A DNA stretch of 25,013 nt from a virus, in the IMG/VR virus record IMGVR_UViG_3300037558_002946; one strand, given 5' to 3'. Positions 8,810 to 24,840 of the stretch are shown one piece after another. The notes under the pieces were generated by a model. That model was given only the letters and a program-made list of their open reading frames with translations. It had not been told where the DNA came from and did not search any database. A program made the position numbers and the translations under genes. The first letter of the stretch is position 1. Each line of letters begins with the position of its first letter.

Positions 8810-10138
8810 TCAGCCAACGACTCCATAAACCCTCCTCAACGATCTGCCTCCGTGACCCGCTGCCCACACAGCAAGGGCCAACGCTATGACACAATCATCA
8901 TGCATGCCTTGCCTCGCCTCCATCTTTATTCCTTGCCTCGTGAGTTGATACTCGAAGAATTGTAGCTCTTTTATCAGCTCCTCTATGTATGGATACTTGA
9001 CTTCGCCATTCTCGATTGCCGCTTGCAAGCGCTGGATCAATTGGACCTTCGACTTTGCAGTGAAGACATATCCTTCAGCTCCGATATCCTGCAAGTCCTC
9101 GAGTACTGGATCTCCAACACCACTGGAATCGATCAAAACTTTGGCGTAGTTGAAGCGCTTGTACAATTCCTTCAACTTCAATATCGTTTCGGCGTAGGGG
9201 CGGCGGTTGAATCGCTGGAAGTGGACGAGTTTGAAGGGCTTATTCGTGATGTCAAGTACTATGATGACCGTATAATCGAGATACTTCGCCAGATCGCAAC
9301 CGATAGCGTAGATTCTCCCTGGCTGCCCCATATCGACGAGTTCGATGTTGGAGATGTTTCTCTGGATGTCGGCCCACCTGAAAACAGCATTCTGGTCCTC
9401 TACGAACTCCGCGAGGTATTCTGTGCGGAAAATGATCGAGTTCTCGCCATACTCTCTCTTTTTCTTCTCTATGAACTCGTGACTGATATGGGGATTGGCT
9501 GTAGAAGGGAAGCGATAGCTGCTGTAGTCTTCGAACTCTTCCGATTGCCCCTTGAGGTAGGAATCGTAAAAGTGGTTCTTTCCGAATGGCGTTCCGATTT
9601 TGATCCATGATCCATTGAAATCTGCTAACATTGGCTCGACAACTTGGCTGATGACATCATCGGGAATGTAAGCAGCTTCGTCGAGGATTGCCCTATGCGC
9701 CTTGTGGCCTCTCAAGTACTCTGGCTTTGTTGTCGAGCGAGCGTGGATCTCGCTGCCATTCCTAAATATAATCTTGCTGAAGGGAGTTTTGTAGACTCGC
9801 TCGATGAGGTGAACAAGAATCGATTTAGAAAGTAGGGTCGTTATCTCCCAAAACATGATATTTGCTTGGTTGTAGGATGGGGCGAGGATGAACTGAATGG
9901 ATCCAGGATGAGTTATGGCGTAGTGGATGGCCGAAAACGCCATCGCTTTGGTCTTGCCGAAACGTCTGCCAGCAACAACAGTTATGAACTGATGCTTGTC
10001 GCGGAGGATCAGCTTTTGAGCTTCGTGGGGCTCGTGGTTTAGGAATATTTGTGTGAACAGAACTGGATCCCTTATGGCTTGCTTAATCTTCTTTTTGTCC
10101 TTGCCGAGTTCCGATATCAAATCGTCGAGCTTACTCAT
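8810..10138 (-). CDS. terL: Terminase large subunit
   Basis: Walker A AGRRFGKT, Walker B AILDEAA, coupling motif IGTP, RNase H-like nuclease IGCDLAKYLDYT and HDDCVIALALA. Confidence 0.95.
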   Translation of the reverse strand: MSKLDDLISELGKDKKKIKQAIRDPVLFTQIFLNHEPHEAQKLILRDKHQFITVVAGRRFGKTKAMAFSAIHYAITHPGSIQFILAPSYNQANIMFWEITTLLSKSILVHLIERVYKTPFSKIIFRNGSEIHARSTTKPEYLRGHKAHRAILDEAAYIPDDVISQVVEPMLADFNGSWIKIGTPFGKNHFYDSYLKGQSEEFEDYSSYRFPSTANPHISHEFIEKKKREYGENSIIFRTEYLAEFVEDQNAVFRWADIQRNISNIELVDMGQPGRIYAIGCDLAKYLDYTVIIVLDITNKPFKLVHFQRFNRRPYAETILKLKELYKRFNYAKVLIDSSGVGDPVLEDLQDIGAEGYVFTAKSKVQLIQRLQAAIENGEVKYPYIEELIKELQFFEYQLTRQGIKMEARQGMHDDCVIALALAVWAAGHGGRSLRRVYGVVG

Positions 10139-10586
10139 CTTCCTTCAAAGCTTCTTCAAACAATGCTAAGAGCTTGGAGGCTGGATCTTGAATGTTGCCA
10201 GCGAGCTCGTGCTTAAGTTTGATCGCTCTAAACATAGCGTTCGTGCATACTTCCACGACCCTTGGCTTCTTTTCGGGATCGACCTTCATAGCGTAATTGC
10301 GCATCCTGGCAATTATATCGTTCAAAGCTTTGATCTCATCCACAACCTTATCGGCTCCCTCCTCGAGTTGTTGATAGTACTTCTCCACACCCCTCTTCAC
10401 GAAATTGAAGTGTCTCTTGTGCCTGGTTATGTTGGACTTACTAAGCTTTAAATCGGGGAATTTTGCGATGATCTCGCTGTAAGGACGCCCTTCAATCAAC
10501 ATTTGATTAATTTCCTCAAGGTGTTCGGAGCGGCAAATCTTGCATCTCGGGTTCAAGAGTTGCGCAACATTTTCGGAGTTACTCAT
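10131..10586 (-). CDS. terS: Terminase small subunit (N-terminal CxxC/HTH)
   Basis: Directly upstream of and overlapping terL; RCKICRSEH...YSEIIAKF...SKSNITRHKRH HTH followed by helical oligomerisation segments. Confidence 0.75.
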   Translation of the reverse strand: MSNSENVAQLLNPRCKICRSEHLEEINQMLIEGRPYSEIIAKFPDLKLSKSNITRHKRHFNFVKRGVEKYYQQLEEGADKVVDEIKALNDIIARMRNYAMKVDPEKKPRVVEVCTNAMFRAIKLKHELAGNIQDPASKLLALFEEALKEDE

Positions 10587-10606
10587 GGTTGCGCTTGTTG
10601 TGGATG

Positions 10607-10616
10607 GACTTTAAAA
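10607..10616 (-). promoter_or_regulatory. Late-type TATA element TTTTAAAGTC, 20 nt upstream of the terS ATG
   Basis: Shared motif and near-identical spacing with the other three late units. Confidence 0.7.
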
Positions 10617-10648
10617 GAGAGATTAGTTGAGACAATGGAGAAATCCCA

Positions 10649-10698
10649 ATGTTCTACAGTAGAAACCTTATTATAGGTAGGTTTCTACTGTAGAACAT
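10649..10698. repeat. Perfect 20-bp inverted repeat, each arm containing the palindrome TTCTAC-W-GTAGAA, flanking a TATA-like element (probable operator pair)
   Basis: ATGTTCTACAGTAGAAACCT (10649-10668) / TATTATAGGT / AGGTTTCTACTGTAGAACAT (10679-10698); the right arm overlaps ATG 10697. Confidence 0.9.
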
Positions 10699-10978
10699 GA
10701 AGTACGAGGTGTGTGATGTTAAGGAGTACGTGAAGAAGAGTAAAAAAAGAGGTCGTTGGTACGCGTGGACTCAAACTGTCATAAATCTCAGCGCTGATTG
10801 GCAAGGAGTGCCATTTGTTGCAATATTAGACTACAAGTTTGTCGCGGAGTTGTGGAACTTTCTCAGCAAAATCAAGGGAAGAATTGGCGAAGTTCAACTC
10901 GAAATCGAGTGTGAAGACTGGCTTATAAAATTCGAAGCGATGAAATCAGTCATGGAAAAGAAAATGCACGAAGTCTGA
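10697..10978 (+). CDS. Small putative transcription regulator (AbrB/swapped-hairpin-like)
   Basis: The only credible plus-strand gene; fills the gap between early and late modules; has its own TATA and operator; basic beta-rich N-terminus (KKSKKRGRWYAWTQTVINLSADWQG). Confidence 0.6.
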   Translation: MKYEVCDVKEYVKKSKKRGRWYAWTQTVINLSADWQGVPFVAILDYKFVAELWNFLSKIKGRIGEVQLEIECEDWLIKFEAMKSVMEKKMHEV

Positions 10979-10990
10979 TCTGACAATTTT

Positions 10991-11656
10991 TTACAAAAAC
11001 TCCTCAAAATCCGAAAACGTGATGTATTCGACTCTCTTCTTTCCTTCTGGAGGTAAGAGTCTTCTCTTTGACTTGTTTTTATTATACTCGGCGAGGAATT
11101 TTATCATCGCTTCCTCGACCTCATCGAATTCTGCAAATTCATCTCCAAAGATCGAACGTATCATCCACTTTCTCAAAAACCCATAGAAGAAACTCTCTTC
11201 TGGTAAGTGTGTCGTGAACTTCCTATAAAATGGTAGCGAGTTCTTCTTCAAGTAGTGCAACCTCTTGCTCCTCAATGACCTCTCATCACTAAAATAATAC
11301 GTGCTGTGATGCACAAACTTGTAATTATCCCTCTCAATGAACTCGATCCCCCCACTTTTCAACAACTCGAATCCATCTTGAGTCTCATTCACCTTATAGA
11401 CTCCAATCCAAGATGGCAAGCAATCTGGCATCTTAGCTTTAGGACCCAAAACTAAGAAAACAGCATCGCAAATGTAAACATATTGAGGAAGTTGCTCGAG
11501 GATTCTCATCGGCTTATCGTTATCTCCCTTGATCTCGAAGCCAATTATGTTGTCAGCATAAAGCCCAAGCACATCGAATACCGAACCCTCGTAAATCGCA
11601 TCGAAGTTCCTTAAAATTGTTTTCTTCAACAACTCCTTAATTTCGCGCTCGTTCAT
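10991..11656 (-). CDS. PD-(D/E)XK nuclease-fold protein (sce7726/MmcB-like)
   Basis: FDVLG...IGFEIKGDNDKPMRILEQLPQYVYICDAVFLV...LPSWIGV matches the D...EIK-x-D-x-D...RL..Q...Y...D pattern. Confidence 0.7.
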   Translation of the reverse strand: MNEREIKELLKKTILRNFDAIYEGSVFDVLGLYADNIIGFEIKGDNDKPMRILEQLPQYVYICDAVFLVLGPKAKMPDCLPSWIGVYKVNETQDGFELLKSGGIEFIERDNYKFVHHSTYYFSDERSLRSKRLHYLKKNSLPFYRKFTTHLPEESFFYGFLRKWMIRSIFGDEFAEFDEVEEAMIKFLAEYNKNKSKRRLLPPEGKKRVEYITFSDFEEFL

Positions 11657-12923
11657 TAGCCTCTCTCCTCAAGAAGACTTCAAGGTCGCTTTGCACCCAA
11701 GATTGTTTGATGTTCTTCCAAAACAAATTCAGGCGACTTCTCCAGTACGGGCTGTTTTCCCAACGCTTTGAAAGATAAAAATAATAGCGATCTGGATCGT
11801 TAGCAAATTCATTGGCTATTTCTTCCTCTTTTTTTACAACCCAAGCGTTGTGGAGTGCTCTGACAGTAAAACCATCTTTCTTGTGAGCCTTGAATGCTTT
11901 GACAAGAATATCGAATGGAATGTCGTGGAAGATATAGTCGGGATCCGCATGAACCTCTCTGAGCAAGTTGAGTTCTTTGGATCCGAGCTTGTTTCTCTTG
12001 ACACCTACTGGAACCCCAACGTGTTCTGGCAAATAGATGGTCCAGAACCTTGCCGCAATCCTCCAACTCGAGCCATCCGAGAATTTTGCTCCACCGAGGA
12101 AGCCGAGATGCATGAAATTTATGTTTGCGGCTCCAAGGAGGAACACTTCTCTATCTCTCAGCAAATTTAGGGCTGTGGCGAGGCGTTCAAAGATGACATT
12201 GACAGGTGTGAGGTCTTTTCCATTGCTGCCATTGCTGGATCCAGCGGGCTTATGTTGGTTGCCGACTTGAGGAGCTGGATGCGTATCAGCTGCATAAACA
12301 CCAAGTCCGATCTTGCGAGTATATTGGGCATCCAAAGGATGATCGTGTTTCGGTCCTTCGTAAGAGTTATTTATCCCCGAAAAAGTTCCGATACCCAACA
12401 AATTCGTGTCCTTTGTTGTGGCGTGATATGTTCCGAGAGCGAGTCTGTCCGGATCTTCGATAAGATTTAAACTTTCCAATAATTCTCCGAGGGTCCAACC
12501 ATGAACCACTGGAATGACTGGAACGTGTTCGAGCATGATGTGGTAGAATTCAGCTGACTTTCTTATCAATTTCCGACGATCCTCACAACTCTGATAGTAC
12601 GCTGGTGGAAGGTCGAGTTGGATAAGAATGTCTTTTTTAGTGTAGCCCATTTTCTTGTAAACAGCAACAGTTCTGAGTGGATCTGGATTTTTCAACTTGC
12701 CCGTAAGGAATTGGAAACCTCCACTGTCGTAAACGAGGCGATGACTACTACCGAACTTATGGCGAAAGCCCATACTATTGTTGGACTTATAGAAAGGAAC
12801 TACCGAAAAAAGGAGCTCATTAAAGTAGTCTTCGACATAAGGGTGTTTGCCCACACACTCAACTTGATGAGAAAGGAATACGATTATTTCTTTTGCCGCT
12901 TCTTGGCTTTTAATCCCCTTCAT
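11637..12923 (-). CDS. tRNA-guanine transglycosylase-fold protein, DpdA-like (putative 7-deazaguanine DNA transglycosylase)
   Basis: DSGGFQ (12711-12728), IQLDLPP, IPVVHG, VFLLG, FSDGSSW (nucleophile Asp in a DpdA-like D-S/G-S-S-W context) and ALHN. It lacks the CxCxxC zinc motif and any PUA domain. Confidence 0.8.
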   Translation of the reverse strand: MKGIKSQEAAKEIIVFLSHQVECVGKHPYVEDYFNELLFSVVPFYKSNNSMGFRHKFGSSHRLVYDSGGFQFLTGKLKNPDPLRTVAVYKKMGYTKKDILIQLDLPPAYYQSCEDRRKLIRKSAEFYHIMLEHVPVIPVVHGWTLGELLESLNLIEDPDRLALGTYHATTKDTNLLGIGTFSGINNSYEGPKHDHPLDAQYTRKIGLGVYAADTHPAPQVGNQHKPAGSSNGSNGKDLTPVNVIFERLATALNLLRDREVFLLGAANINFMHLGFLGGAKFSDGSSWRIAARFWTIYLPEHVGVPVGVKRNKLGSKELNLLREVHADPDYIFHDIPFDILVKAFKAHKKDGFTVRALHNAWVVKKEEEIANEFANDPDRYYFYLSKRWENSPYWRSRLNLFWKNIKQSWVQSDLEVFLRREANERARN

Positions 12924-13071
12924 CCTCTTTTACCCACTCCAACAATTTCTTGATCTTCAAGTAGATGCAACTCTCAATTTCGTTCGGACACTCCCAACTC
13001 CACTCGCAATACTCGCATACTTCCTCGTCGAGCCACCTTTCGATGTCGCTAATCAACTTGTCAACATCCAT
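12910..13071 (-). CDS. Small Cys-rich protein (53 aa), not in the ORF track
   Basis: MDVDKLISDIERWLDEEVCEYCEWSWECPNEIESCIYLKIKKLLEWVKEDEGD; overlaps both neighbours; GAGGGAG RBS. Confidence 0.65.
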   Translation of the reverse strand: MDVDKLISDIERWLDEEVCEYCEWSWECPNEIESCIYLKIKKLLEWVKEDEGD

Positions 13072-13312
13072 GTATCTCCCTCAAAACGCTCTCCAACCGC
13101 GACAAATCCGATCCAACAATAGAAGCGATTGGCACTTCGTTCTCAAGCACCACAATAGTTGGCAGCGATTGAACGAAATATTTCTTCGCCAATTCTCCAT
13201 TCTTTTCGACATCGACCTCTTTGAAGTCGATCCCTCGCTCTCTCAAATATTGCTTGACGATTTTACAAGGAGCACACCATCTGGCCGAAAAAAGCAAGAT
13301 TTCTACCACCAT
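13061..13312 (-). CDS. Thioredoxin/glutaredoxin-like redoxin
   Basis: FSARWCAPCK active site and cis-Pro motif VQSLPTIVV. Confidence 0.9.
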   Translation of the reverse strand: MVVEILLFSARWCAPCKIVKQYLRERGIDFKEVDVEKNGELAKKYFVQSLPTIVVLENEVPIASIVGSDLSRLESVLREIHGC

Positions 13313-14037
13313 TCCACCTCCAAAAAGCCCTCTTCTACCAACATTATAGCTTCGGCAAGTTTGTACGCCATCAAAGGTGGGACAGCGTTGCCTATTTGCG
13401 CGTATTGCTCTTCGAGAGTTCCATAAACTACGTAATCAAGCGGGAAAGTCTGAACGATTTTTGCCTCTGGAATCAAGCTTCTTCTGCGGAAGACTTTACT
13501 CAACCCTCCGCGCGATGTCTTCCATCCTCTTCTGTACTCGCTCGCAAGAACAGTTGGAAATATAACATCCACGGGTTGTTTTTTGGGTTCGGGAAAATCT
13601 CCAGCAAACAATCGCCTTCTCAGTTGTGGAACTCCGAAGTCGGACATCCTGTATATTCTGACTTTCGGGACATCGGGAGGAAGGTAGTCTCTGGCGAGGG
13701 GCGTTTCCTCCATGATCACGTACTTCGGTTTTTTCTTGCGGACTATCTCCCAAAACCAGTTTATGAGAGATGTATCGTGCGTTCGCTTGTGATTCGCAAC
13801 GCTGTGGTCCTGGCAAGGTGGAGAGCCTATAATTATGTCGCAATTCGGAATGTCTTTGGGATCCACATTTAAAGCATCCTCGCAATGGACATCAACGTGA
13901 GGAAAGTTAGCCTTGTAGCTCCTGCAAGCAATTTCCCACTTGTCGAGAGCGTAGATTATCTCGAAACCAGCATAATCAAATCCCAAGCTGAACCCTCCGC
14001 AACCGCAAAATAAATCGATTACCTTAAGTGTCCTCAA
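13303..14037 (-). CDS. DNA (cytosine-5)-methyltransferase, compact
   Basis: Motif I IDLFCGCGG, IV GSPPCQ, VI variant VIMEETP, VIII QLRRRLF, IX/X EAKIVQTFP...QIGNAVPP. Confidence 0.92.
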   Translation of the reverse strand: MRTLKVIDLFCGCGGFSLGFDYAGFEIIYALDKWEIACRSYKANFPHVDVHCEDALNVDPKDIPNCDIIIGSPPCQDHSVANHKRTHDTSLINWFWEIVRKKKPKYVIMEETPLARDYLPPDVPKVRIYRMSDFGVPQLRRRLFAGDFPEPKKQPVDVIFPTVLASEYRRGWKTSRGGLSKVFRRRSLIPEAKIVQTFPLDYVVYGTLEEQYAQIGNAVPPLMAYKLAEAIMLVEEGFLEVEWW

Positions 14038-14809
14038 ACTCTATTCCTCCATAATCCGACAGAACTCTCTTTCCCATCATATGCATGATTCTTCGATACA
14101 ACGCTGGATTCACTTGAGATAGTTGCTTCTCCCAACCAATGAAGCCAGTACAAGTCATGCAACCATTTCTATCTGCAAAATCGTAGATTGGATTGATCGG
14201 AAGTTGTTTTACTTCGATGTATTCCCAAATATCCTTGTCTGTCCAATAAGCCAAGGGATGCGCTCTTAAAATTGGCCTCTTGAATTTCGTATCGCCTATC
14301 CTCTTCGTCCAATAAAGTGGTCCTTTGTTCGCAATGTGGAGTTTTCTTGTCCTTGACTCAAATGCGGAAATTCCAGTGAACACACAATCGATGTTGTTGC
14401 TCTTATAGAAATCATTGGCTGGCTTGTTCTTGAGATACCAGCAACACTTGGGCTCCTTTTTATACCACCTTCTGTGGTCTGGAAAGCCATACTTCTTTAC
14501 GATCTGCCAGAAATTCTTCTCTGGCTTTAGCTCGTAGAAATTCAAGTTCCATTCTCTGGCAATTCTCCTGACAAACTTTAAATTTTGGGGATATTCAACA
14601 CCAGTATTGCAGAAGACAACTATAATGTTGGGCTCGAATTGAAGGACCAAGTGTAATAAGACCAAAGAATTCTTTCCACCACTAAAAGCTACAGCTTGCT
14701 TTGTTGTTTGCTTTAAAGCATCTTGGATTATTCGTTCAGCAATCTCTATCTTTTTGCTAAGAGGTTTATCGAGCCAATCCTCGATCTCCTTGAGTTTAAT
14801 GTAGCTCAT
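14024..14809 (-). CDS. PAPS/APS-reductase family (PP-loop, Fe-S) protein
   Basis: AFSGGKNS, FCNTGVEYP, CCWYLK, FTGISAFESRTR, HPLAYWTDKDIWEYI, RNGCMTC. Confidence 0.9.
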   Translation of the reverse strand: MSYIKLKEIEDWLDKPLSKKIEIAERIIQDALKQTTKQAVAFSGGKNSLVLLHLVLQFEPNIIVVFCNTGVEYPQNLKFVRRIAREWNLNFYELKPEKNFWQIVKKYGFPDHRRWYKKEPKCCWYLKNKPANDFYKSNNIDCVFTGISAFESRTRKLHIANKGPLYWTKRIGDTKFKRPILRAHPLAYWTDKDIWEYIEVKQLPINPIYDFADRNGCMTCTGFIGWEKQLSQVNPALYRRIMHMMGKRVLSDYGGIEFEDT

Positions 14810-16338
14810 GGCTCTCCCTTGATCATCCTCTCGATATTGTCGAGACGTACCATCAGCGTGGCGATTGCGTTAATCAATTGGATCATTCTATCCTGCTTCG
14901 AAGCTCTCTCGACCCTCTCAAGGAAAAGTCTTTCGAGGCGCTCTATTCTCTTTTCTATGCTCGAAAACATGGACTTCATTATGTCTTCGAAGTTTTGCTG
15001 CGACATGCCACCAGCAATACAAGCCTCTATAGCATCTATGCGTTGTTGGATTTGCTGGATTTGTGGCTTAAGTTGAATTGCTGCTTCCAACCCTTCTCTT
15101 ACCAAATCGATCTCCTCTGGATTGTCGGACTCTATGTGGCCTTCACCATGACTGGCATCAATCCATAGTCTTTCATTCAAGCGAATCGGAGATGTTTCAA
15201 CAATACCTCCATTTTGCATCAATGTTTTAGTTCGACTTTCGTTGCGCAATTTCTTCATGATGTTTTGGATGAGTTTTGACTTCAAAGCCCATTCTGGCTT
15301 GCTCAATAGGTAAGGCTTGTCGAGCTCTATTTCGACACCCTTAGCATATTGCTCTCGAAGCCATATTTGAACAGCCCTATCCAACATCCGTATAACTTCA
15401 GCTGCTGCTTCCTCCGCAGATTTATCGATAAATTCAACATCTTCAGCAAGTTCTGCTACGACTTTGTACTTTAACGCCCGGATCCGGACAACTATGCTGT
15501 TGACAGTGATCAAGTATACGTGGCCAGTCCAACCCTTTGGTGTGTACGATTTGAGGTACGACTGACATTCGGTTGAGAAGGGTTGATTTTGGTTGACAAT
15601 GTGATAAGCCAATTGCAAGCGGTGCACATTGATCGGGAGCTTTTGCGGGGAGCTAACATCCCTGTTGTTGCGTGGTTGACAATTGGGTTTGCTGTGTGCC
15701 TTTATGAATGCGATGATAGCTTTCTTAACGACATATAACTTGTCCCTCTTTTTTCCGAAGCCCCAATGAGACCCTTTCTCTGCGATGAATCCCCATTTTA
15801 TGAATTTCTTAACCCACTTGTGTACCGCTTGCCTCGATATTCTGAGTTTTCTGGCAATCTGGCTTTGAGTTAAGCCTTCGTATAACAATTTCAGAATTTG
15901 CTTAGCTCTCTCACATAAGTTCTCGAGTATGCCTATATCCCTAAGGTCCAAGGGTTTGTCAACCACCCATGTTGGAGGTTTGTCAACCACATTGTCAACA
16001 TGTGTTCTTGGTCTCGTGTCCTTACTTTTTGTGATTGCTCGGCCATTCTTTGAGATACGATATGATAACCCATGATGTGATTGCTCTGTTTCAAAAATGG
16101 AGGATGGAGATTGCTTTGATTCGTTGAGTTTTGTCAACCCATCATCATGAGATTGACTATCAATCTCGCTGTCAACCAAGACTATGTATGTCTCGCTGCC
16201 AACATACCTCCTCTCGACTGGCAGCGATAAGAGATGCCACTCGATGGATGGTACAGGATAACCAGTAAGCTCGGCCAATTCCTTTAAAGTGCGAGGTTTC
16301 TCCTGGAGAATAGTTATTATGCGGTCTCTGATGCTCAT
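14806..16338 (-). CDS. Multi-wHTH protein, putative replication initiator
   Basis: N-terminal wHTH (PRTLKELAELTG), low-complexity linker, second HTH (GLTQSQIARKLRISRQAVHKWVKK), alpha/beta domain and C-terminal coiled coil. The gene contains iteron-like repeats. Confidence 0.55.
   Translation of the reverse strand: MSIRDRIITILQEKPRTLKELAELTGYPVPSIEWHLLSLPVERRYVGSETYIVLVDSEIDSQSHDDGLTKLNESKQSPSSIFETEQSHHGLSYRISKNGRAITKSKDTRPRTHVDNVVDKPPTWVVDKPLDLRDIGILENLCERAKQILKLLYEGLTQSQIARKLRISRQAVHKWVKKFIKWGFIAEKGSHWGFGKKRDKLYVVKKAIIAFIKAHSKPNCQPRNNRDVSSPQKLPINVHRLQLAYHIVNQNQPFSTECQSYLKSYTPKGWTGHVYLITVNSIVVRIRALKYKVVAELAEDVEFIDKSAEEAAAEVIRMLDRAVQIWLREQYAKGVEIELDKPYLLSKPEWALKSKLIQNIMKKLRNESRTKTLMQNGGIVETSPIRLNERLWIDASHGEGHIESDNPEEIDLVREGLEAAIQLKPQIQQIQQRIDAIEACIAGGMSQQNFEDIMKSMFSSIEKRIERLERLFLERVERASKQDRMIQLINAIATLMVRLDNIERMIKGEP
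15499..16178. repeat. Dispersed iteron-like repeats, consensus TTGTCAACCA(C), 8 copies in two opposing orientations
   Basis: Direct copies: 15956-15966, 15980-15990, 15992-15999, 16131-16139, 16170-16178. Inverted copies: 15499-15505, 15590-15599, 15672-15682. Confidence 0.8.
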
Positions 16339-16341
16339 AGC

Positions 16342-17367
16342 TTACGTGCCATCGTACATGTTGCCGATGAGCTCCCTCTCTTGCTTCAATTTCATCTTTA
16401 TGTCCTCAGAGAGCGAGAACGACTGTTTGATGAGCTTGAGTTTTCTCCCCTCTTTCACGAGTTCCGCATCGAAATCGACATAATTGGCGAAGATTGGCAT
16501 TAGAAACGATGATGCCACTTTCCTGTCAATGTTGAGTTCAAGTTTTTCAGCAACTCTTGCTATGTCCTCAGCATAAGCTTCCTCTGGTAAACTCTCGAAG
16601 AGCTCTTTTATTTTATCGTAATCGTAAACTCTGGACCACAACCTTCTGCCATCTTTATTTGTCACTCGGATGATCAACTTGCCATCGTGGATAGCGTATT
16701 GGAAGTAGCGATGGGAAATCCAAATAACACTCTCTTCGTCATACGCTGGCTTCCTCCCACGCCTCTTCGGTTTTACTGGCTCTCTTGGTTCTCGGAAATT
16801 GATTAGTTCGGTACCCTTGACAAGGATCATTTCCGAGCCTCTCTTGTGGGCCTTCACAAGCTTGGCTTCGAAGTCGTTGTGAGCCGAGAATATGTGCATC
16901 AAGTACCTCGCAGTAGCATCAGAAATCTTGAGTTCCATCTCCCTTGCTTGCTTCAATACATCTTTAACAGTGGACCGTGCTGGAAGAGCATCGAACAATT
17001 CCTTGACTTTTGAGAATATTAGCCTCCGCTTGAAGCCTGGAGGATCGGCCCTATGCTTGAAGTATATCAGATCGTTCTTTTCGTCAATGAAGTAGTAAAT
17101 GCTTCCAACTTCTCGCCATCCTGGTTCGCTTAATTCTTTGTCAGGCTCATCCAGCATCCTTTCTATGGCAAAAATGAAATAGGCCGCACCATCGACCAAA
17201 TCGTCGAGTAATTTTTCCTTGCAACCAGTCTGGAGCATTGTTGAGGATCTGTAAGACTTTACTCGGGCCATCGCTATGAGATCTTCGAGTGGCAATTGCT
17301 TCCAAGTTTGCTTGTATAGAGAGTCGCGCTCGTTTATCTTGTCGAGAATTAACTCAATTGCCCTCAT
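16342..17367 (-). CDS. Nmad1/DUF1599-like all-alpha NTP-pyrophosphatase-type domain fused to two tandem ~95-aa repeats
   Basis: N-terminus Y-x-x-x-W...L...K-x-x-R...D-D-L-V-D-x-x-x-Y; duplicated KxKELFxxLP...LMxIF...DFxAxLVK; start re-assigned to ATG 17367 (GGAGGT RBS). Confidence 0.6.
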   Translation of the reverse strand: MRAIELILDKINERDSLYKQTWKQLPLEDLIAMARVKSYRSSTMLQTGCKEKLLDDLVDGAAYFIFAIERMLDEPDKELSEPGWREVGSIYYFIDEKNDLIYFKHRADPPGFKRRLIFSKVKELFDALPARSTVKDVLKQAREMELKISDATARYLMHIFSAHNDFEAKLVKAHKRGSEMILVKGTELINFREPREPVKPKRRGRKPAYDEESVIWISHRYFQYAIHDGKLIIRVTNKDGRRLWSRVYDYDKIKELFESLPEEAYAEDIARVAEKLELNIDRKVASSFLMPIFANYVDFDAELVKEGRKLKLIKQSFSLSEDIKMKLKQERELIGNMYDGT

Positions 17368-17563
17368 TGGTGTTACCTCCAAAGAAAGCGAAGCAAGGAA
17401 GGATTGCAACAAAGTCAGCTTCTGGATTGAGCTTGCTGTCATACAGATCTTCGGCAAATTCTTTGGCCTCGTCGAAATACTTGAAAGGTTTTGCGTTCAC
17501 GATTTGCTCGTACCCCTCCAACTTAGCATTGTAATGATTCTCAACCCACAGAACTAAGAACAC
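17354..17563 (-). CDS. Hypothetical protein (69 aa)
   Basis: Fills the gap, overlapping both neighbours; GTG start with RBS. Confidence 0.55.
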   Translation of the reverse strand: MFLVLWVENHYNAKLEGYEQIVNAKPFKYFDEAKEFAEDLYDSKLNPEADFVAILPCFAFFGGNTNEGN

Positions 17564-18188
17564 GATTCCATCCCTCCATCTCTCCCTCGAACTCGATTGG
17601 TAGATCGATTCTGTAGCGGCGCTGGATGTTGTGTTTGCAAAGATCTTTCAATCTGAGGAACAAGTGAAAAATTGTCTCGATGTCTCTCTGGCAATGGGCC
17701 CTTATCTCCGCAAATTTCGATTCCTCGTACAACTTCGGTATATCTCTGCCAGATATCTCAGAATCGTATGGAAGGCCAAGATATTCCGCGATTTCTTTCA
17801 GTTTTACGTGCTTGTTGTTGGGTTGGAGATACCTCGTAACAACATACATAAGATCCACGCGATAAAGCTGCCTCAATCGCGTAACGAGCGACGAGTTGTA
17901 CTCGTGTTTTAGATATCTCGCAGAAATAAAGGGTATGTCAAAGCTGATGTTGTATCCAATTATGCAATTCGAATCGTTTTCAGTGAGCTTGTAGATAGCT
18001 TTTACAATCATGTCGTCTTCGCTGTACTCGTCCCTCGACAGCACTTCGACTCTGAGCTTGTCATCCTCGATGTACCCTACGCCTATTGCTACTATCTCGC
18101 ACTCTGTTTTCTTTTCAGTCGGGATGGGGTCCAAGCCAGTCGTTTCGATATCGAGAAAAACAGGATTTAATCGGAGAATTGCTGTCAT
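17541..18188 (-). CDS. DEDD 3'-5' exonuclease (DnaQ/PolB-exo/RNase H-like)
   Basis: ExoI FLDIETTGLDP, ExoII IIGYNISFDIPF, ExoIII HCQRDI. Confidence 0.9.
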   Translation of the reverse strand: MTAILRLNPVFLDIETTGLDPIPTEKKTECEIVAIGVGYIEDDKLRVEVLSRDEYSEDDMIVKAIYKLTENDSNCIIGYNISFDIPFISARYLKHEYNSSLVTRLRQLYRVDLMYVVTRYLQPNNKHVKLKEIAEYLGLPYDSEISGRDIPKLYEESKFAEIRAHCQRDIETIFHLFLRLKDLCKHNIQRRYRIDLPIEFEGEMEGWNRVLSSVG

Positions 18189-18625
18189 TTTGCATCTACC
18201 TCCCTTATCGCATTAAATAAGTCATTTCTATCGATTTTCTTCCACTCTGCATCTTTTTGGGCATCGTAGGGACAAAAATTAGGAGGAAACCATGCAAGTG
18301 CTGGACCTATGTATATGCATGGCGCTCCACAAAGCTTGCAGAGGAAGACGTTCTCGTTTCCATATAGCTTCAACTTTCCAAGAGATTTCGTAAGAAGGGG
18401 AGCTTTGCAATGCTTCAGAAACTCGCGAGTGTAGCGTATACAATCTTCCCTGCCGCACATCCCATCTTCAGCCTCTTGCCTCAGAGGACAATCTTTATTG
18501 CAGAATACATGTGCAATTGAGTCTTGTACCTCCGACAGATGCAAGTGTCTCAGAATGTCCAAGCCCTTTAATTTTGTAGCAAGATATCGGAAGAATGTTG
18601 CTCTATCGCGTTCGTTCTCTCTCAT
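18185..18625 (-). CDS. Cys-rich (zinc-finger-like) hypothetical protein
   Basis: FCNKDCP, CGREDC, CKLCGAPC; start at ATG 18625 (GGAGGT RBS). Confidence 0.6.
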   Translation of the reverse strand: MRENERDRATFFRYLATKLKGLDILRHLHLSEVQDSIAHVFCNKDCPLRQEAEDGMCGREDCIRYTREFLKHCKAPLLTKSLGKLKLYGNENVFLCKLCGAPCIYIGPALAWFPPNFCPYDAQKDAEWKKIDRNDLFNAIREVDAK

Positions 18626-18638
18626 TATATCAAACCTC

Positions 18639-18836
18639 CTAAAATAGCCCGAACATTCTCCCAAGCCTATCTCTTTCCCTTTCCAACTCTCTGTAAGCTA
18701 AGTCATCCAACTCGTCAGCCCTTATGAAGTGCGGGCAATACTTGCATTTTCTAAGCCCACATTCTTCTGGCTCGAATTCCTCATCGACCTCAGTATCGAA
18801 GTAATAGCTCTTCGGGTTGTTGCAAGCTCCCTTCAT
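18639..18836 (-). CDS. Small Cys-rich protein (65 aa)
   Basis: MKGACNNPK...CGLRKCKYCPHF; ATGA overlap with the upstream gene. Confidence 0.6.
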   Translation of the reverse strand: MKGACNNPKSYYFDTEVDEEFEPEECGLRKCKYCPHFIRADELDDLAYRELERERDRLGRMFGLF

Positions 18837-19201
18837 CTTGATCCCTCCCGAATTCGCCAGAGCAATCGTATCGGACAATTGTATCGCTCGCCATTCCACT
18901 CGAAAATCGCCATCCTTCTGTTCACGACAGCCACGAGCTTGACAACAACTCCTCTCGGAACTCTCGCGTATTTTGGACCCATGTAAATTCTGAGTTCATC
19001 CTTGAGTTCGACATCCGAAAGAAAGTTGTTAGGACAGAGTTCAATGCAATCGTATATCGTTATTATTGGTGGCAAGCCTGTAAGTTCAGAGAACTTTTCG
19101 CACCACCAGTATTCGCCATAGGGAACCTTCCCCTTCAGGAAATCGCAATCCAAGAGATCAAGCAATCCCTTATCTTTGGCAATCTTCAGAAACTCATCCA
19201 C
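18833..19201 (-). CDS. Hypothetical protein with SH3/KOW-like C-terminus
   Basis: GTG start at 19201 after GAGGAGG; C-terminal beta-rich VPRGVVVKLVAVVNRRMAIFEWNGERYNCPIRLL. Confidence 0.55.
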   Translation of the reverse strand: MDEFLKIAKDKGLLDLLDCDFLKGKVPYGEYWWCEKFSELTGLPPIITIYDCIELCPNNFLSDVELKDELRIYMGPKYARVPRGVVVKLVAVVNRRMAIFEWNGERYNCPIRLLWRIREGSR

Positions 19202-19316
19202 ACGAATCGGCCTCCTCTGGAAAACAATCGAAGTACAACTCGCACTCGTGGCAGCAATCGTTGTGGCCCTCGATCCACATGTTGCAAGGAAAGTGAGGGC
19301 AGAGTTCGCAACACAT
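19194..19316 (-). CDS. Cys-rich micro-protein (40 aa, 8 Cys)
   Basis: MCCELCPHFPCNMWIEGHNDCCHECELYFDCFPEEADSCG, after a GAGGTG RBS and the stop of the DUF5131 gene. Confidence 0.55.
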   Translation of the reverse strand: MCCELCPHFPCNMWIEGHNDCCHECELYFDCFPEEADSCG

Positions 19317-19320
19317 GGCA

Positions 19321-20025
19321 TCATCGCACCTCCGGAAATTCTTGGATCTTCTCTGGCCATCGCAAGTTGTTCTTGAGGAAAATTGGGATTCCAAGTTCTC
19401 TTGCTGGCTTTATTATGCGTTCCACCCACTCTGGCTTAGGTGGGCGATAAGGATTGGTTTGGGCACCAACGATTATCCAATCGATGCCCTCGAAATCATC
19501 TGGCTCAAAAACACTCGGTTGCTTTAGCAATGGTTCAAAGCTCAGAAATCTGACCGATGGAGTTTTGGCTCTGAGCAACCAAGATTTAGCCACGTACAGA
19601 TTTGCAAGATTCACACCATCTAATGTCGCTCCAATCCAAGTGTTCTTTGGAAATGCGAACCACGAGTACCTTCTCGGATTCTTCGTCAAAAATTGAAATA
19701 CATGCTGCGAGTTGTCCTTGACAACATTGAGGACTTTGTGAACCCACTCTATTGGCACCCAAGCACCAAAAAGGTCTCCCATACTGACTGTGAAGATCAT
19801 AGCGCTACCCATTGGGAGGTACGGATTCCTCGATCTGAAACTCTTTGGAACACTGTTATATGGCTCTTTCAGTCTTTCAGAGTGGAATGTTGGAGCATAG
19901 CCATACGGAAATAGCTTTTTGAAGCGATTAGCGATTTTGCGACCATAACAATAGGGGCAATTATGCAAGCAACCAGTTACAGGGTTCCAAGTGAAATCGG
20001 TCCATTCGATCTTTGTCCTATTCAT
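19321..20025 (-). CDS. DUF5131 / phage gp37-gp68 family radical SAM protein
   Basis: MNRTKIEWTDFTWNPVTGCLHNCPYCY (CxxxCxxC), FTVSMGDLF, FQFLTKNP, FLSFEPLL, IDWIIVGAQT, IPIFLKN, QEFP. Confidence 0.9.
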   Translation of the reverse strand: MNRTKIEWTDFTWNPVTGCLHNCPYCYGRKIANRFKKLFPYGYAPTFHSERLKEPYNSVPKSFRSRNPYLPMGSAMIFTVSMGDLFGAWVPIEWVHKVLNVVKDNSQHVFQFLTKNPRRYSWFAFPKNTWIGATLDGVNLANLYVAKSWLLRAKTPSVRFLSFEPLLKQPSVFEPDDFEGIDWIIVGAQTNPYRPPKPEWVERIIKPARELGIPIFLKNNLRWPEKIQEFPEVR

Positions 20026-20209
20026 ATCCTCCACCACTCCTGAGTTCGTCAACAAAAGCCCAAACGAGAACTGGAAGCCAAAGCACCATAGCTAAAAGCA
20101 ACGTGATCAATTTGTCCTCGGGCTTCTTGTGGTATTTTGTGGCTCCAAAGCCTACCCAAGCCCCAATTGCAAAATAAATTAGAATCAGAATTGATAACGC
20201 TGCCATCAT
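20018..20209 (-). CDS. Small membrane protein (2 TM)
   Basis: 63 aa with two hydrophobic helices separated by KYHKKPEDK. Confidence 0.65.
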   Translation of the reverse strand: MMAALSILILIYFAIGAWVGFGATKYHKKPEDKLITLLLAMVLWLPVLVWAFVDELRSGGGYE

Positions 20210-20334
20210 CTGTTACACCTCACTTGTTTGAATCCGACGAATCCGCCAAAATAGGGGCATTTCTGACACATCTCGAGTGTCATGAGTCCATGATGCTTGC
20301 AATTTACAGCTCCGATGACAATGACAATCTGCAT
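20206..20334 (-). CDS. Cys/His-rich micro-protein (42 aa), not in the ORF track
   Basis: MQIVIVIGAVNCKHHGLMTLEMCQKCPYFGGFVGFKQVRCNR; ATGA overlap with the downstream gene. Confidence 0.6.
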   Translation of the reverse strand: MQIVIVIGAVNCKHHGLMTLEMCQKCPYFGGFVGFKQVRCNR

Positions 20335-20336
20335 TG

Positions 20337-20579
20337 TTAATCCCCCTCGAACTCCACAAAATCGTCAAGACTTCGCTCATTGATGCTGCTAATCGGTTCG
20401 AGCTTCAGCTCGAAAACAGCGCCTTTTTTTATTGTTCTCAGAAATCTCTTCAAGTCCTCCTTTGTTTCAGCCTTGATTGTTATCGTGATGTCTATGTCTC
20501 CAGTGTTCTGCAACTTTGCTTTGTAAGTCCTTTTCTTCATCGAATCTTCAACACCAATGCTTCTGAGAGTTACATACAT
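20337..20579 (-). CDS. Hypothetical protein with C-terminal PIP-box-like motif (ERSLDDFV)
   Basis: Immediately downstream of pcn; small beta-rich protein ending NERSLDDFVEFEGD. Confidence 0.6.
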   Translation of the reverse strand: MYVTLRSIGVEDSMKKRTYKAKLQNTGDIDITITIKAETKEDLKRFLRTIKKGAVFELKLEPISSINERSLDDFVEFEGD

Positions 20580-20581
20580 TG

Positions 20582-21304
20582 CTATCCCTCGTACTCTATT
20601 CTTGGAGCCAAGAAATACTCCACAACGACACTTCCGATTTCGAAGTGCAACCTCACTGGATAATCGGTGCCAAGATGTATCGTGAGCAAATCGTCAGATG
20701 ATGCGACTTTTAGCATCATTTCCAAGTAATCCAAGCCAAACATGCTTCTGGCTTCAGCGCCCTCGAACTCTTCAAGATCCGCAGAATCGATTTCGAGAAC
20801 GAGCCTATCGATATCTCCTTTTGCTTCTACGTAGAACGATTCTTTGTCGGTTCTGAAAATTACGCTGTCAGATATGTTTTTAGCAAGAGAAATGAACTTC
20901 TTGACTTCTTCAACCTTCAAAGTTATCTTGGCTGGCAAATCCAAGCTTGGTTGTTTAGGCTCCCTTCTTATTGCCGAAGGATCTATGGCTTTAAGCTCGT
21001 ATGCCATGTTCCCGCTTCGCAACTTTATTGCTTTTCCATCGAAAACGATGTCTACTAAATCGTCCTTTTTCAGTCCTTTCAACAAATCGTTGAGTCTGTC
21101 TATGTCCACACCCACGATCTCTTCCTTCGCATCGAAGGCTTCGAAAGCATCCAATGGTACTTTCACGATGACCATCGCGACATTGCTGGCATCCACAGCT
21201 CTGACATTGAGTCCATCGTTGAATCGAAACTTTGCCTCGCTGACAAAAGGTCTGAGAGCTTGTACTACTGTTTTAAGAATAGAAGCCTTGCATATTACAT
21301 TCAT
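20582..21304 (-). CDS. pcn: DNA polymerase sliding clamp (PCNA)
   Basis: RAVDASNVAMV, GVDIDRL, IDPSAIRREP, ARSMFGLDYL, LTIHLGTDYPVRL and YFLAPRIE are characteristic of euryarchaeal PCNA and close to Archaeoglobus PCNA as recalled. Confidence 0.96.
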   Translation of the reverse strand: MNVICKASILKTVVQALRPFVSEAKFRFNDGLNVRAVDASNVAMVIVKVPLDAFEAFDAKEEIVGVDIDRLNDLLKGLKKDDLVDIVFDGKAIKLRSGNMAYELKAIDPSAIRREPKQPSLDLPAKITLKVEEVKKFISLAKNISDSVIFRTDKESFYVEAKGDIDRLVLEIDSADLEEFEGAEARSMFGLDYLEMMLKVASSDDLLTIHLGTDYPVRLHFEIGSVVVEYFLAPRIEYEG

Positions 21305-21944: not shown

Positions 21945-22549
21945 CGCTCATCCCCCATGTACCTCTCGCTCAACCTCTCGATTTCATCAAGCACTACGAC
22001 AACATCCTTGTAGCGTACATCGCCCATCGTTGCAATGAACTTCCTCAAAGCGTGTTTCTCATCAGCGTTTCTCGCCTTCTCTATAGCATCCAAAACAGCT
22101 CTGATTGTCTTCTTGGGCAGCTTTGTTTTGCCATAAAGCAATGCCTCGAGGTCGTTGCGATCAAAAGAATATCTTATCCTGGAAATCGTGTCATTCAATC
22201 TCTTCAAAATTTCAATTGCCTCCTCGAGCAACAATCCATACTTTCGCACTTCTTCTGGCGTGATTGTCTTTTGCAATGGATTCGTGTCAAGGGGGCATTG
22301 TTGGAGCTCTTCTATCAGGACTATATCTCCAGTCGCCAAACAAACATGCCTATCGCCATTAATGTTCGCTATGCCGCTGTATTTGCAATCGTTGCAACCG
22401 AGAAACTCTTTGATGTCTATCAATTCCCCTCTCATGCAAAGGTCTCTATCGGGACAACTCTCATCGCATTGCTTGTTGTGGTATGGGTGGTCCTTGTTAT
22501 TCTGACATACCTCGAAGAACGGATTGGGAACTTGCTTCATTGCTCGCAC
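21941..22549 (-). CDS. Hypothetical protein: Cys-rich N-terminus plus helical C-terminus
   Basis: CQNN...CDESCPDRDLC, CNDC...C...C; helical basic C-terminal half. Confidence 0.6.
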   Translation of the reverse strand: MRAMKQVPNPFFEVCQNNKDHPYHNKQCDESCPDRDLCMRGELIDIKEFLGCNDCKYSGIANINGDRHVCLATGDIVLIEELQQCPLDTNPLQKTITPEEVRKYGLLLEEAIEILKRLNDTISRIRYSFDRNDLEALLYGKTKLPKKTIRAVLDAIEKARNADEKHALRKFIATMGDVRYKDVVVVLDEIERLSERYMGDER

Positions 22550-22815
22550 CCCTTACAAAAATTGCGGATCTTCTCCTCTGCCTCCCTTGGCAACTTGAAA
22601 ATTGGAATCAGCATTTCGTTGTTTATTATATCTATAATTTCCTCAGCGGTTTTGGCGTATTTTATGCCAAGTGTTCTGAACTTTCCACTCCAGTACTTGA
22701 TAGTACTTGTTATTTTGAATCTTGGTTTCCGCTTGTAGCGCTGAATGGTGATAAACTCGTAACCCACCCAAGTTCGACCCAATGGTATTGTCAACTTGTC
22801 TGACAAGAGTATCAC
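22537..22815 (-). CDS. Hypothetical protein (92 aa)
   Basis: In-operon ORF with overlapping junctions. Confidence 0.55.
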   Translation of the reverse strand: MILLSDKLTIPLGRTWVGYEFITIQRYKRKPRFKITSTIKYWSGKFRTLGIKYAKTAEEIIDIINNEMLIPIFKLPREAEEKIRNFCKGCEQ

Positions 22816-24767: not shown

Positions 24768-24840
24768 AGCCGCCGGCGGGATTTGAACCCGCGACCTGGT
24801 GATTACAAGTCACCCGCTCTGCCAGCTGAGCCACGGCGGC
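24768..24840 (-). tRNA. tRNA-Thr (anticodon UGU), intronless, CCA not encoded; probable integration target
   Basis: GCCGCCG/CGGCGGC acceptor stem, D-arm TGGCTCAGCTGGCAGAGC, anticodon arm GGTGA-CTTGTAA-TCACC, T-arm GCGGG-TTCAAAT-CCCGC, discriminator T. Confidence 0.97.

Follow-up and report, generated by a model that had tools for sequence, protein, structure and literature searches.

PCNA-interacting-peptide-like tails on predicted DNA-modifying enzymes of an archaeal provirus with its own sliding clamp

A viral clamp and four C-terminal tails

The stretch of DNA analysed here (the window, 25,013 nucleotides, IMG/VR virus record IMGVR_UViG_3300037558_002946) is best explained as the provirus of a head-tailed virus in an Archaeoglobus-like archaeon, equipped with a sliding clamp (PCNA) of its own. 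It lies at G000:C48:21863-46875 within a 2.27-Mb genome of 50 contigs. All substantial genes are on the minus strand. The left half holds head-tail virus genes, as read from the map of open reading frames (ORFs) and from relatives with terminase, Mu-type portal and Mu F genes. Transcription runs from PCNA through an 80-amino-acid (80-aa) ORF, a DUF5131 protein, a PolB-exo-like exonuclease, a 371-aa protein and a 510-aa helix-turn-helix protein into a modification block. The block consists, in this order, of a PAPS-reductase-like enzyme, a C5 DNA methylase, a thioredoxin, a 53-aa Cys-rich protein, a TGT-like enzyme and a putative nuclease (Table 1).

Four of these early proteins carry octamers near their C-termini that resemble a PCNA-interacting peptide (PIP): QSDLEVFL on the TGT-like enzyme, ERSLDDFV on the 80-aa protein, KRVLSDYG on the PAPS-reductase-like enzyme and YITFSDFE on the putative nuclease. 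The initial annotation of this DNA read the octamers as clamp-docking motifs that bring base-modifying enzymes to nascent viral DNA. All four translate exactly as it wrote them, 3-10 residues from the C-termini. QSDLEVFL matches the PIP consensus (Q-x-x-[LIM]-x-x-[FYW]-[FYW/h]) in full, and ERSLDDFV fits it everywhere but at the Q. KRVLSDYG and YITFSDFE fit only at position 4 (L/F) and at the aromatic position 7; their homologues have canonical versions.

The provirus does encode PCNA. The protein matches both Pfam domains (PCNA_N, PF00705, 45.6 bits; PCNA_C, PF02747, 31.7 bits) and exceeds the cut-off of NF002222 (236.4 bits vs. 207). It is 51% identical to a host PCNA on contig C18, which has metabolic genes around it and looks Archaeoglobus-like. 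The docking site for clients is intact, with the interdomain loop and the C-terminal APRIE conserved.

The name "TGT-like" is borne out by structure; the sequence libraries are silent. Searches of Pfam, PHROGs, NCBIfam and PDB give no sequence match (for Pfam PF01702, none at E 0.01), and a PF01702 search of the 2.27-Mb genome misses the gene. An AlphaFold2 (AF2) model has a predicted local distance difference test score (pLDDT) of 80, and of more than 90 in the (beta/alpha)8 barrel. Foldseek matches it in PDB to ArcTGT (1iq8/1j2b), to 7nq4 and to bacterial and eukaryotic TGTs (probability 1.0, template-modelling score 0.5-0.6). D66-S67-G68-G69, which belongs to the DSGG[FY]Q motif of the superfamily, and D283 are invariant in an alignment of 56 sequences, and we infer that D66 and D283 are equivalent to TGT Asp102 and Asp280. 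PF01702 is carried by 2 of 93 relatives.

For the PAPS-reductase-like enzyme the label holds as far as the domain goes (PF01507, 110.6 bits vs. a gathering threshold of 22.5; it also matches phrog_424). It scores far below the CysH equivalogs (NF002537 80.5 vs. 154, TIGR02057 51 vs. 254, TIGR00434 69.9 vs. 165) and below the DndC equivalog (TIGR03183 13.5 vs. 290.4 bits). The label "nuclease" is plausible: D(28)...E-I-K, a D...ExK motif, is conserved in the alignment, and phrog_984 is matched, but the family match is sub-threshold (NF033832, sce7726, 46 bits vs. 70). The 80-aa protein has no family match in the Pfam and PHROGs scans. Its AF2 model is weak as a whole (pLDDT 60), with residues 58-80 mostly coil at pLDDT 45-52, and an ESM Atlas search with it returned no usable relative. 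A weak match to acylphosphatase (E 0.0025) was unconfirmed and is set aside; the AF2 model is too weak for a fold search.

The background is a set of 2,365 host ORFs, whose last 25 residues we scanned for canonical PIP boxes. The host tails found include QLSLDSFF (816 aa), QATLERWF (336 aa), QQTLEDF (205 aa), QPTLFDYL (199 aa), QVTISDFV (1,144 aa) and QTTLESFFNS (390 aa). In size and motif the six proteins resemble PolB, FEN-1, RNase HII, UDG, the PolD large subunit and NreA. Tails of host PCNA clients follow the same pattern as the viral ones. The initial annotation had given QKTLDDF as the tail of A. fulgidus RNase HII; the tail of the 205-aa RNase HII-like host protein is close. We built a scoring matrix from seven host PIP boxes and, after removing this training set, obtained thresholds of 7.65 (1%) and 3.65 (5%). 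Outside the training set there are further strong PIP-like tails, DLTLDSFF (482 aa, G000:C12:1102-2550) and QVTLEDLA (531 aa, G000:C48:63058-64653), and these two proteins are probably more host PCNA clients.

Ranked by this matrix among the 2,365 tails, ERSLDDFV is 10th, QSDLEVFL 25th, KRVLSDYG 149th and YITFSDFE 178th. Only the first two fall in the top 1%, that is 2 of the 32 window ORFs (binomial P ~0.04). Looser patterns were dropped as evidence: [LIMVF]xx[FYW] is matched by 53% of the host tails and 63% of the window tails (20/32), and xxx[LIMV]xx[FYW]h by 21% and 22%. The pattern [LF][SDE]D[FY] (3/32 in the window vs. 8/2,333) is post hoc and fitted to the data, so it was not used. Judged on its own sequences, the window makes a modest to weak case for PIP boxes.

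Tail conservation and a modelled complex

The homologues make a clearer case. For the TGT-like enzyme we collected 93 proteins (E down to 1e-14). Qxx[LIMV]xx[FYW] stands in the last 25 residues of 81 of 92 relatives (88%), compared to 1.35% of the 2,365 host tails. The family profile reads [YW]-V-Q-[TS]-[DK]-[LM]-x-[VI]-[YF]-L-K followed by 2-19 variable residues, and several members terminate exactly in ...QTDLEVYLK. The PIP core residues are Q411, L414, F417 and L418, with Q411 at least 90% conserved. Despite this strong conservation, residues 405-428 are coil in the AF2 model, with pLDDT dropping from 78 to 56. Conservation combined with low-confidence coil is the usual picture where a motif is maintained for a partner and not for the fold.

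A search of 96 Archaeoglobi genomes for relatives found only three weak ones, all of them lacking the motif, and a scan of IMG/VR gave four distant, uninformative loci. The TGT-like enzyme also has an insert of ~60 residues (173-235, window ~12219-12407) that is disordered (pLDDT <50). Family length ranges from ~340 to 620 aa, suggesting that the insert is variable.

In the PAPS-reductase-like enzyme KRVLSDYG sits 25 residues beyond the end of the Pfam domain. Among the 74 closest homologues (35-82% identity), 58 carry xxx[LIM]xx[FWY] within their final 22 residues, 30 of the 58 with Q at position 1. Tails of the 74 include ...MGQSNLEDF, ...GQSSLDDF, ...GQSNLDRW and ...GEPTLWEF; their general pattern is ...MGQ[ST]xLx[DE][FW], often up to the last residue, and four of the 74 have a second motif at the extreme end (...LDEWF, ...LEEWF). 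The nearest relatives of the window protein carry the variant without Q and strictly keep L-x-D-[FY] (MGKTVLADF, MGRTILEDF, MGKTVLSDFGG). Above the 1% line of the host matrix are 35% of the 74 close homologues and 4% of 46 distant ones. The distant homologues are at background and thus serve as an internal negative control. A homologue from a thaumarchaeal spindle virus carries QKTFDDFL.

The corresponding motif for the bacterial beta clamp is QL[SD]LF. Nothing of this sort is present in the three annotated phage PAPS reductases inspected (Clostridium, Bacillus, Porphyromonas), nor do these three have a PIP-like tail. Four distant, possibly bacterial homologues (P0209, P0172, P0180, P0186) end in RQLDLF or contain QMSLF, which we note as a lead only.

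An exhaustive HMMER search gave 61 homologues of the putative nuclease. The closest (47% identity) ends in KQMFLSDY. Others carry QTDLEMF, QTTLGMF, KTLTLDDW, SMTLDKFL or KKLDEFF, behind linkers of differing length, and at 26-47% identity tails of the form Q/K-x-[ST]-L-x-x-[FWY] recur. Eight of the 20 closest exceed the 1% threshold. All seven homologues of the 80-aa protein have N[ED]R[ST]LD[DE][FY], with L71 invariant. Its gene directly follows the viral pcn in 7 of 7 related contigs read (L011-L017), four of which have no TGT-like/PAPS-reductase gene. The initial annotation had named unconserved tails as evidence against its proposal; the tails are kept in homologues of all four proteins.

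A prediction of the clamp together with a tail had also been suggested. We modelled viral PCNA (with a five-row alignment) and TGT residues 388-428, together with three controls. The model places the TGT tail in the canonical PIP pocket of viral PCNA with a score of 0.72; the best control scores 0.00. Of 80 solved complexes 58 attain this score, and of 110 mismatched pairs only 2 do. At least 90% of contacts are common to the runs, and the partner has a pLDDT of at least 57. In the modelled interface TGT residues 408-418 (SWVQSDLEVFL) face PCNA residues 37, 40-44 (pocket), 116-119 (interdomain loop) and 231-239 (C-terminal strand). The model is supportive of docking of the TGT tail at the classic PIP site.

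Proposed clamp docking and its alternatives

The same short motif stands on four unrelated folds and is used by the clamp clients of the host, as expected of a shared docking peptide. We therefore favour, as the probable reading of the sequences and the model, that the four early proteins end in flexible PCNA-interacting peptides that would dock DNA-acting enzymes on the clamp. The enzymes would accordingly act on viral DNA during its replication and not in the metabolism of tRNA or sulfur. Conserved tails, the TGT model and synteny with pcn bear out the initial annotation on this point. It fares less well for the two degenerate motifs, which rest on their relatives.

Several observations weigh against this reading. 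In the window KRVLSDYG scores 3.2 and YITFSDFE 2.9; both have no Q and lie at background, under the 5% host threshold of 3.65. The PAPS-reductase homologues of two bicaudaviruses (SMV2, ATSV) have no PIP tail. The scan of window proteins revealed no genes for preQ0 synthesis. TGT-like genes with the motif in L009 and L033 have no pcn within 8-10 kb, and a preference for the virus's own clamp is not supported. The tails thus occur independently of a virus-encoded clamp, and host PCNA may suffice. Finally, TGT-like and PAPS-reductase-like genes are apart in L009, L029, L031, L033 and L034, with PAPS reductases but no TGT-like gene in L029 and L031 and TGT-like genes without a nearby PAPS reductase in L009 and L033. 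The two enzymes are adjacent in L010, where the PAPS-reductase gene is immediately upstream of the TGT-like gene, and occur together in the window and in L037, yet each is also found alone. That they form one pathway is not supported.

The conserved C-terminal segments could instead serve the enzymes themselves, as an active-site lid or as a DNA-binding or dimerisation arm, and their likeness to PIP boxes would be coincidental. CysH-type PAPS reductases possess a mobile C-terminal arm of this kind. In the TGT tail conservation extends past the PIP core (Y-1, V0, [VI]6, K9), and the tail begins ~5 residues after the last helix, so it could also serve the enzyme. We consider this explanation unlikely, because a TIM-barrel TGT, a PP-loop enzyme, a PD-(D/E)XK protein and a mini-protein would have to converge on the tail of host clamp clients (Q/x-x-[ST]-L-x-[DE]-[FWY]). 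Furthermore, the viral PAPS-reductase tails have no cysteine, AF2 gives no confident packing of the TGT tail, and the complex model places exactly the motif residues in the PIP pocket. That model may itself pass through resemblance alone. Solved PIP-PCNA structures are plentiful (e.g. A. fulgidus 1RXM), hence a pass shows likeness to a PIP peptide and is not proof of binding.

A narrower alternative is that only the TGT-like and 80-aa proteins bind PCNA. The tails of the PAPS-reductase-like enzyme and the nuclease, with no Q and a poor aromatic pair, would have decayed, and the former enzyme might be an ordinary sulfur-metabolism gene that works with the viral thioredoxin. The low matrix scores of the two tails and the thioredoxin gene nearby fit this account. 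So does the annotation of viral PAPS reductases as metabolic genes (bioRxiv 10.1101/2021.07.29.453957). We hold it to be improbable all the same. The strictly kept L-x-D-[FY] in the nearest relatives argues for selection, not decay, the scores far under the CysH equivalog cut-offs (80 vs. 154, 51 vs. 254 bits) argue against an assimilatory enzyme, and the gene lies among DNA enzymes, in L031 directly after MCM. PIP boxes without Q also exist in archaea. Least credible of all is that the four motifs arose by chance from Leu/Asp/Phe-rich termini. The loose pattern [LIMVF]xx[FYW] is indeed common in host tails, and the window is not enriched in it. The enrichment test proposed in the initial annotation is answered in part by the window and clearly in the affirmative by the families: 18-71% of family members have tails above the 1% host-matrix threshold against 1% expected, although the homologues are interrelated, so these percentages overstate the independent support and to that extent also count against docking. 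Together with the canonical motif throughout most of the TGT family and the synteny of the 80-aa ORF with pcn, tail conservation effectively refutes chance.

Under clamp docking, PCNA (viral, host or both) would be loaded onto replicating viral DNA. The tails would put their Q, L and aromatic residues into the hydrophobic pocket beneath the interdomain connector loop and zip against the C-terminal strand of PCNA, and docking would retain the enzymes on newly made duplex DNA. Docked via QSDLEVFL, the TGT-like enzyme would exchange guanine for a 7-deazaguanine precursor, most plausibly host-supplied preQ0. QueC (238 bits) is present in the host, along with two or three genes of the TGT family, among them ArcTGT. 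The PAPS-reductase-like enzyme may catalyse an ATP-dependent reaction on DNA, either separate from the exchange or following it and possibly linked to thioredoxin, rather than serve sulfate assimilation. Like NucS, the PD-(D/E)XK protein may cleave DNA at the replication fork. The 80-aa protein is a candidate adaptor or competitor at the clamp; it may organise the clamp sites or, as TIP (Thermococcales inhibitor of PCNA) is proposed to do, compete for them. The purpose would likely be self-marking of the viral genome or protection against restriction.

Bacterial Dpd systems need a DpdB ATPase partner to reach DNA, and no DpdB-like ATPase was identified here. A far broader claim, which we put forward tentatively and think may well prove wrong, is that an entire class of PAPS reductases in archaeal viruses, now labelled "auxiliary metabolic", and an extensive, un-named TGT/DpdA-like family are PCNA-tethered, replication-coupled DNA modifiers. 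Clamp docking would here replace the DpdB ATPase, and the 80-aa protein, as a new viral clamp regulator, would steer PCNA between host and viral clients.

Known systems and neighbouring genes

C-terminal PIP recruitment is established for archaeal replication and repair factors (PMC4929162). FEN-1, RNase HII, PolB and NreA (structure 1RXM) share with the tails described here the consensus Q-x-[ST]-L-x-[DES]-[FWY]-h, a flexible C-terminal position and the modelled site (PMC4929162). In contrast to these clients, the proposed ones here are viral base- or nucleotide-modifying enzymes (TGT fold, PP-loop) rather than core replisome or repair factors, and three of the four window motifs have no glutamine. 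Thus PIP-mediated recruitment is known; what would be new is its clients, viral TGT-like and PAPS-reductase-like enzymes. Our literature search found no paper that pairs DpdA with PCNA and none that gives viral PAPS reductases a clamp-docking motif.

The TGT-like enzyme resembles DpdA in its TGT TIM-barrel, the invariant DSGG and second Asp, its viral or mobile context and the preQ0 pathway of the host (QueC). It differs in being too divergent for Pfam TGT, in its disordered insert and in its conserved PIP tail; DNA as its substrate and the inserted base are predictions. With its relatives it makes up an archaeal-virus branch of the TGT superfamily that goes undetected by Pfam. Riding the sliding clamp would be a concrete answer to how a DpdA-like base-exchange enzyme reaches duplex DNA.

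The eukaryotic pair of DNMT1 and PCNA offers a parallel, a DNA-modifying enzyme brought to nascent DNA by a PIP-type motif. This recruitment lets modification follow replication. Enzyme class, domain of life and purpose differ, and the C5 methylase of the window has no PIP-like tail. The putative nuclease recalls the archaeal RecB-like NucS/EndoMS, which is likewise small, of PD-(D/E)XK type and provided with a PIP at its C-terminus (PMC4929162). There is no detectable sequence homology between the two, and the viral protein belongs, below the family cut-off, to the sce7726/phrog_984 group, its nuclease activity being predicted from D...ExK only.

PAPS_reduct PP-loop enzymes act on DNA in phosphorothioation (DndC/SspD/BrxP in Dnd, Ssp and BREX type 4 systems; PMC12707154, PMC12839542). 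The window protein is not a member by the models of these systems, for which no clamp-docking tail is described, and no DndA, DndD or DndE partner was identified among the proteins scanned. PAPS reductases of archaeal viruses are treated as auxiliary sulfur-metabolism genes (10.1101/2021.07.29.453957). This routine annotation is challenged by the conserved clamp-docking tail, which speaks for action on DNA at the replication fork. PIP tails could also separate DNA-acting from metabolic paralogues in archaeal viromes.

TIP has 64 aa and a terminal PIP-like motif and has been proposed as a competitor of PCNA clients (PMC4929162). Its likeness to the 80-aa protein is one of size and motif; the motif is found at the C-terminus here but at the N-terminus of TIP, the sequences are unrelated, and the 80-aa protein is viral and strictly syntenic with pcn. 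It points to a clamp-associated small regulator analogous to TIP.

All contexts examined around the homologues are archaeal and PCNA-using, with Cdc6, MCM, RFC, proteasome and exosome genes. L029 and L030 have Cdc6, an integrase and a PCNA fragment; in L031 an RFC-like ATPase accompanies the MCM/PAPS-reductase pair; in L033 the TGT-like gene is flanked by exosome and proteasome genes. RFC subunits and an ATP-dependent ligase are found in L034, and proteasome genes and an elongation factor G/EF-2-type GTPase in L035. The gene set of the window is repeated on a 93-kb metagenomic contig (L037, 2107-18801) whose TGT is ~30% identical. It comprises an ATP-dependent ligase (tail QQLSLKDML), PAPS_reduct, a C5 methylase, RNase H and a TGT-like protein ending in PYVQTDLSVYLK, together with MCM, PCNA followed by an 84-aa ORF, a CxxCxxCC protein and DUF5131. 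Such a recurrence points to a replication-plus-modification module conserved across a wider group of archaeal viruses.

Table 1. Features of the window with their positions, strands, C-terminal motifs and the basis of each assignment.
Feature	Position	Strand	C-terminal motif	Basis
PCNA (sliding clamp), 240 aa	20582..21304	-		Pfam, NCBIfam NF002222
80-aa protein directly downstream of pcn	20337..20579	-	ERSLDDFV, 20355-20378 (-), residues 68-75 of 80, 5 residues short of C-terminus	Synteny, tail
TGT-fold (DpdA-like) transglycosylase, 428 aa	11637..12923	-	QSDLEVFL (canonical PIP box), 11670-11693 (-), residues 411-418 of 428, 10 residues short of C-terminus	AF2, Foldseek
PAPS-reductase-like PP-loop enzyme, 261 aa	14024..14809	-	KRVLSDYG (degenerate, PIP-like), 14048-14071 (-), residues 247-254 of 261, 7 residues short of C-terminus	PF01507
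Putative PD-(D/E)XK-type nuclease, 221 aa	10991..11656	-	YITFSDFE(EFL) (PIP-like), 11003-11026 (-), residues 211-218 of 221, 3 residues short of C-terminus	Sub-threshold sce7726, motif
C5 cytosine DNA methyltransferase	13303..14037	-	No PIP-like tail	PF00145, 148.8 bits
Thioredoxin/glutaredoxin-like protein	13061..13312	-		PF00085 E 1e-10, PF00462 E 1.4e-9
53-aa Cys-rich micro-protein between thioredoxin and TGT-like genes	12910..13071	-		ORF and translation; no family match
DUF5131 (radical-SAM-related phage protein)	19321..20055	-		PF07505, 138.7 bits
PolB-exo-like 3'-5' exonuclease	17541..18188	-		PF13482 and PF10108
tRNA-Thr(UGU) at provirus edge	24768..24840	-		ARAGORN

No DNA polymerase, primase or helicase was found among the proteins scanned (window 8810-21304), and the viral clamp presumably works with host polymerases. 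No paralogues of the four tail-bearing proteins were found in the genome itself. The thioredoxin/glutaredoxin-like protein is a possible reductant for the PAPS-reductase-like enzyme. DUF5131 is a recurrent neighbour (L015, L016, L029, L030, L037), and the PolB-exo-like exonuclease recurs next to pcn and the small ORF in L011-L016. The tRNA-Thr(UGU) gene is likely the attachment site.

A radical-SAM protein (~235-250 aa) is encoded at 7217-7921 of L033, immediately upstream of the TGT-like gene there, and at 6626-7378 of L031, near the MCM/PAPS-reductase pair. It could be a QueE-like step of deazaguanine synthesis.

The genome holds a third PCNA of 239 aa, 34% identical to that of the window, in a small island at G000:C16:9065-12325 (L001). 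A PCNA of this type also adjoins the closest PAPS-reductase homologue in L029 and L030. The island and the provirus share only two or three small genes (among them homologues of 18639-18899 and 22537-22815, 62-70% identity), and the island may be a remnant or a second related element.

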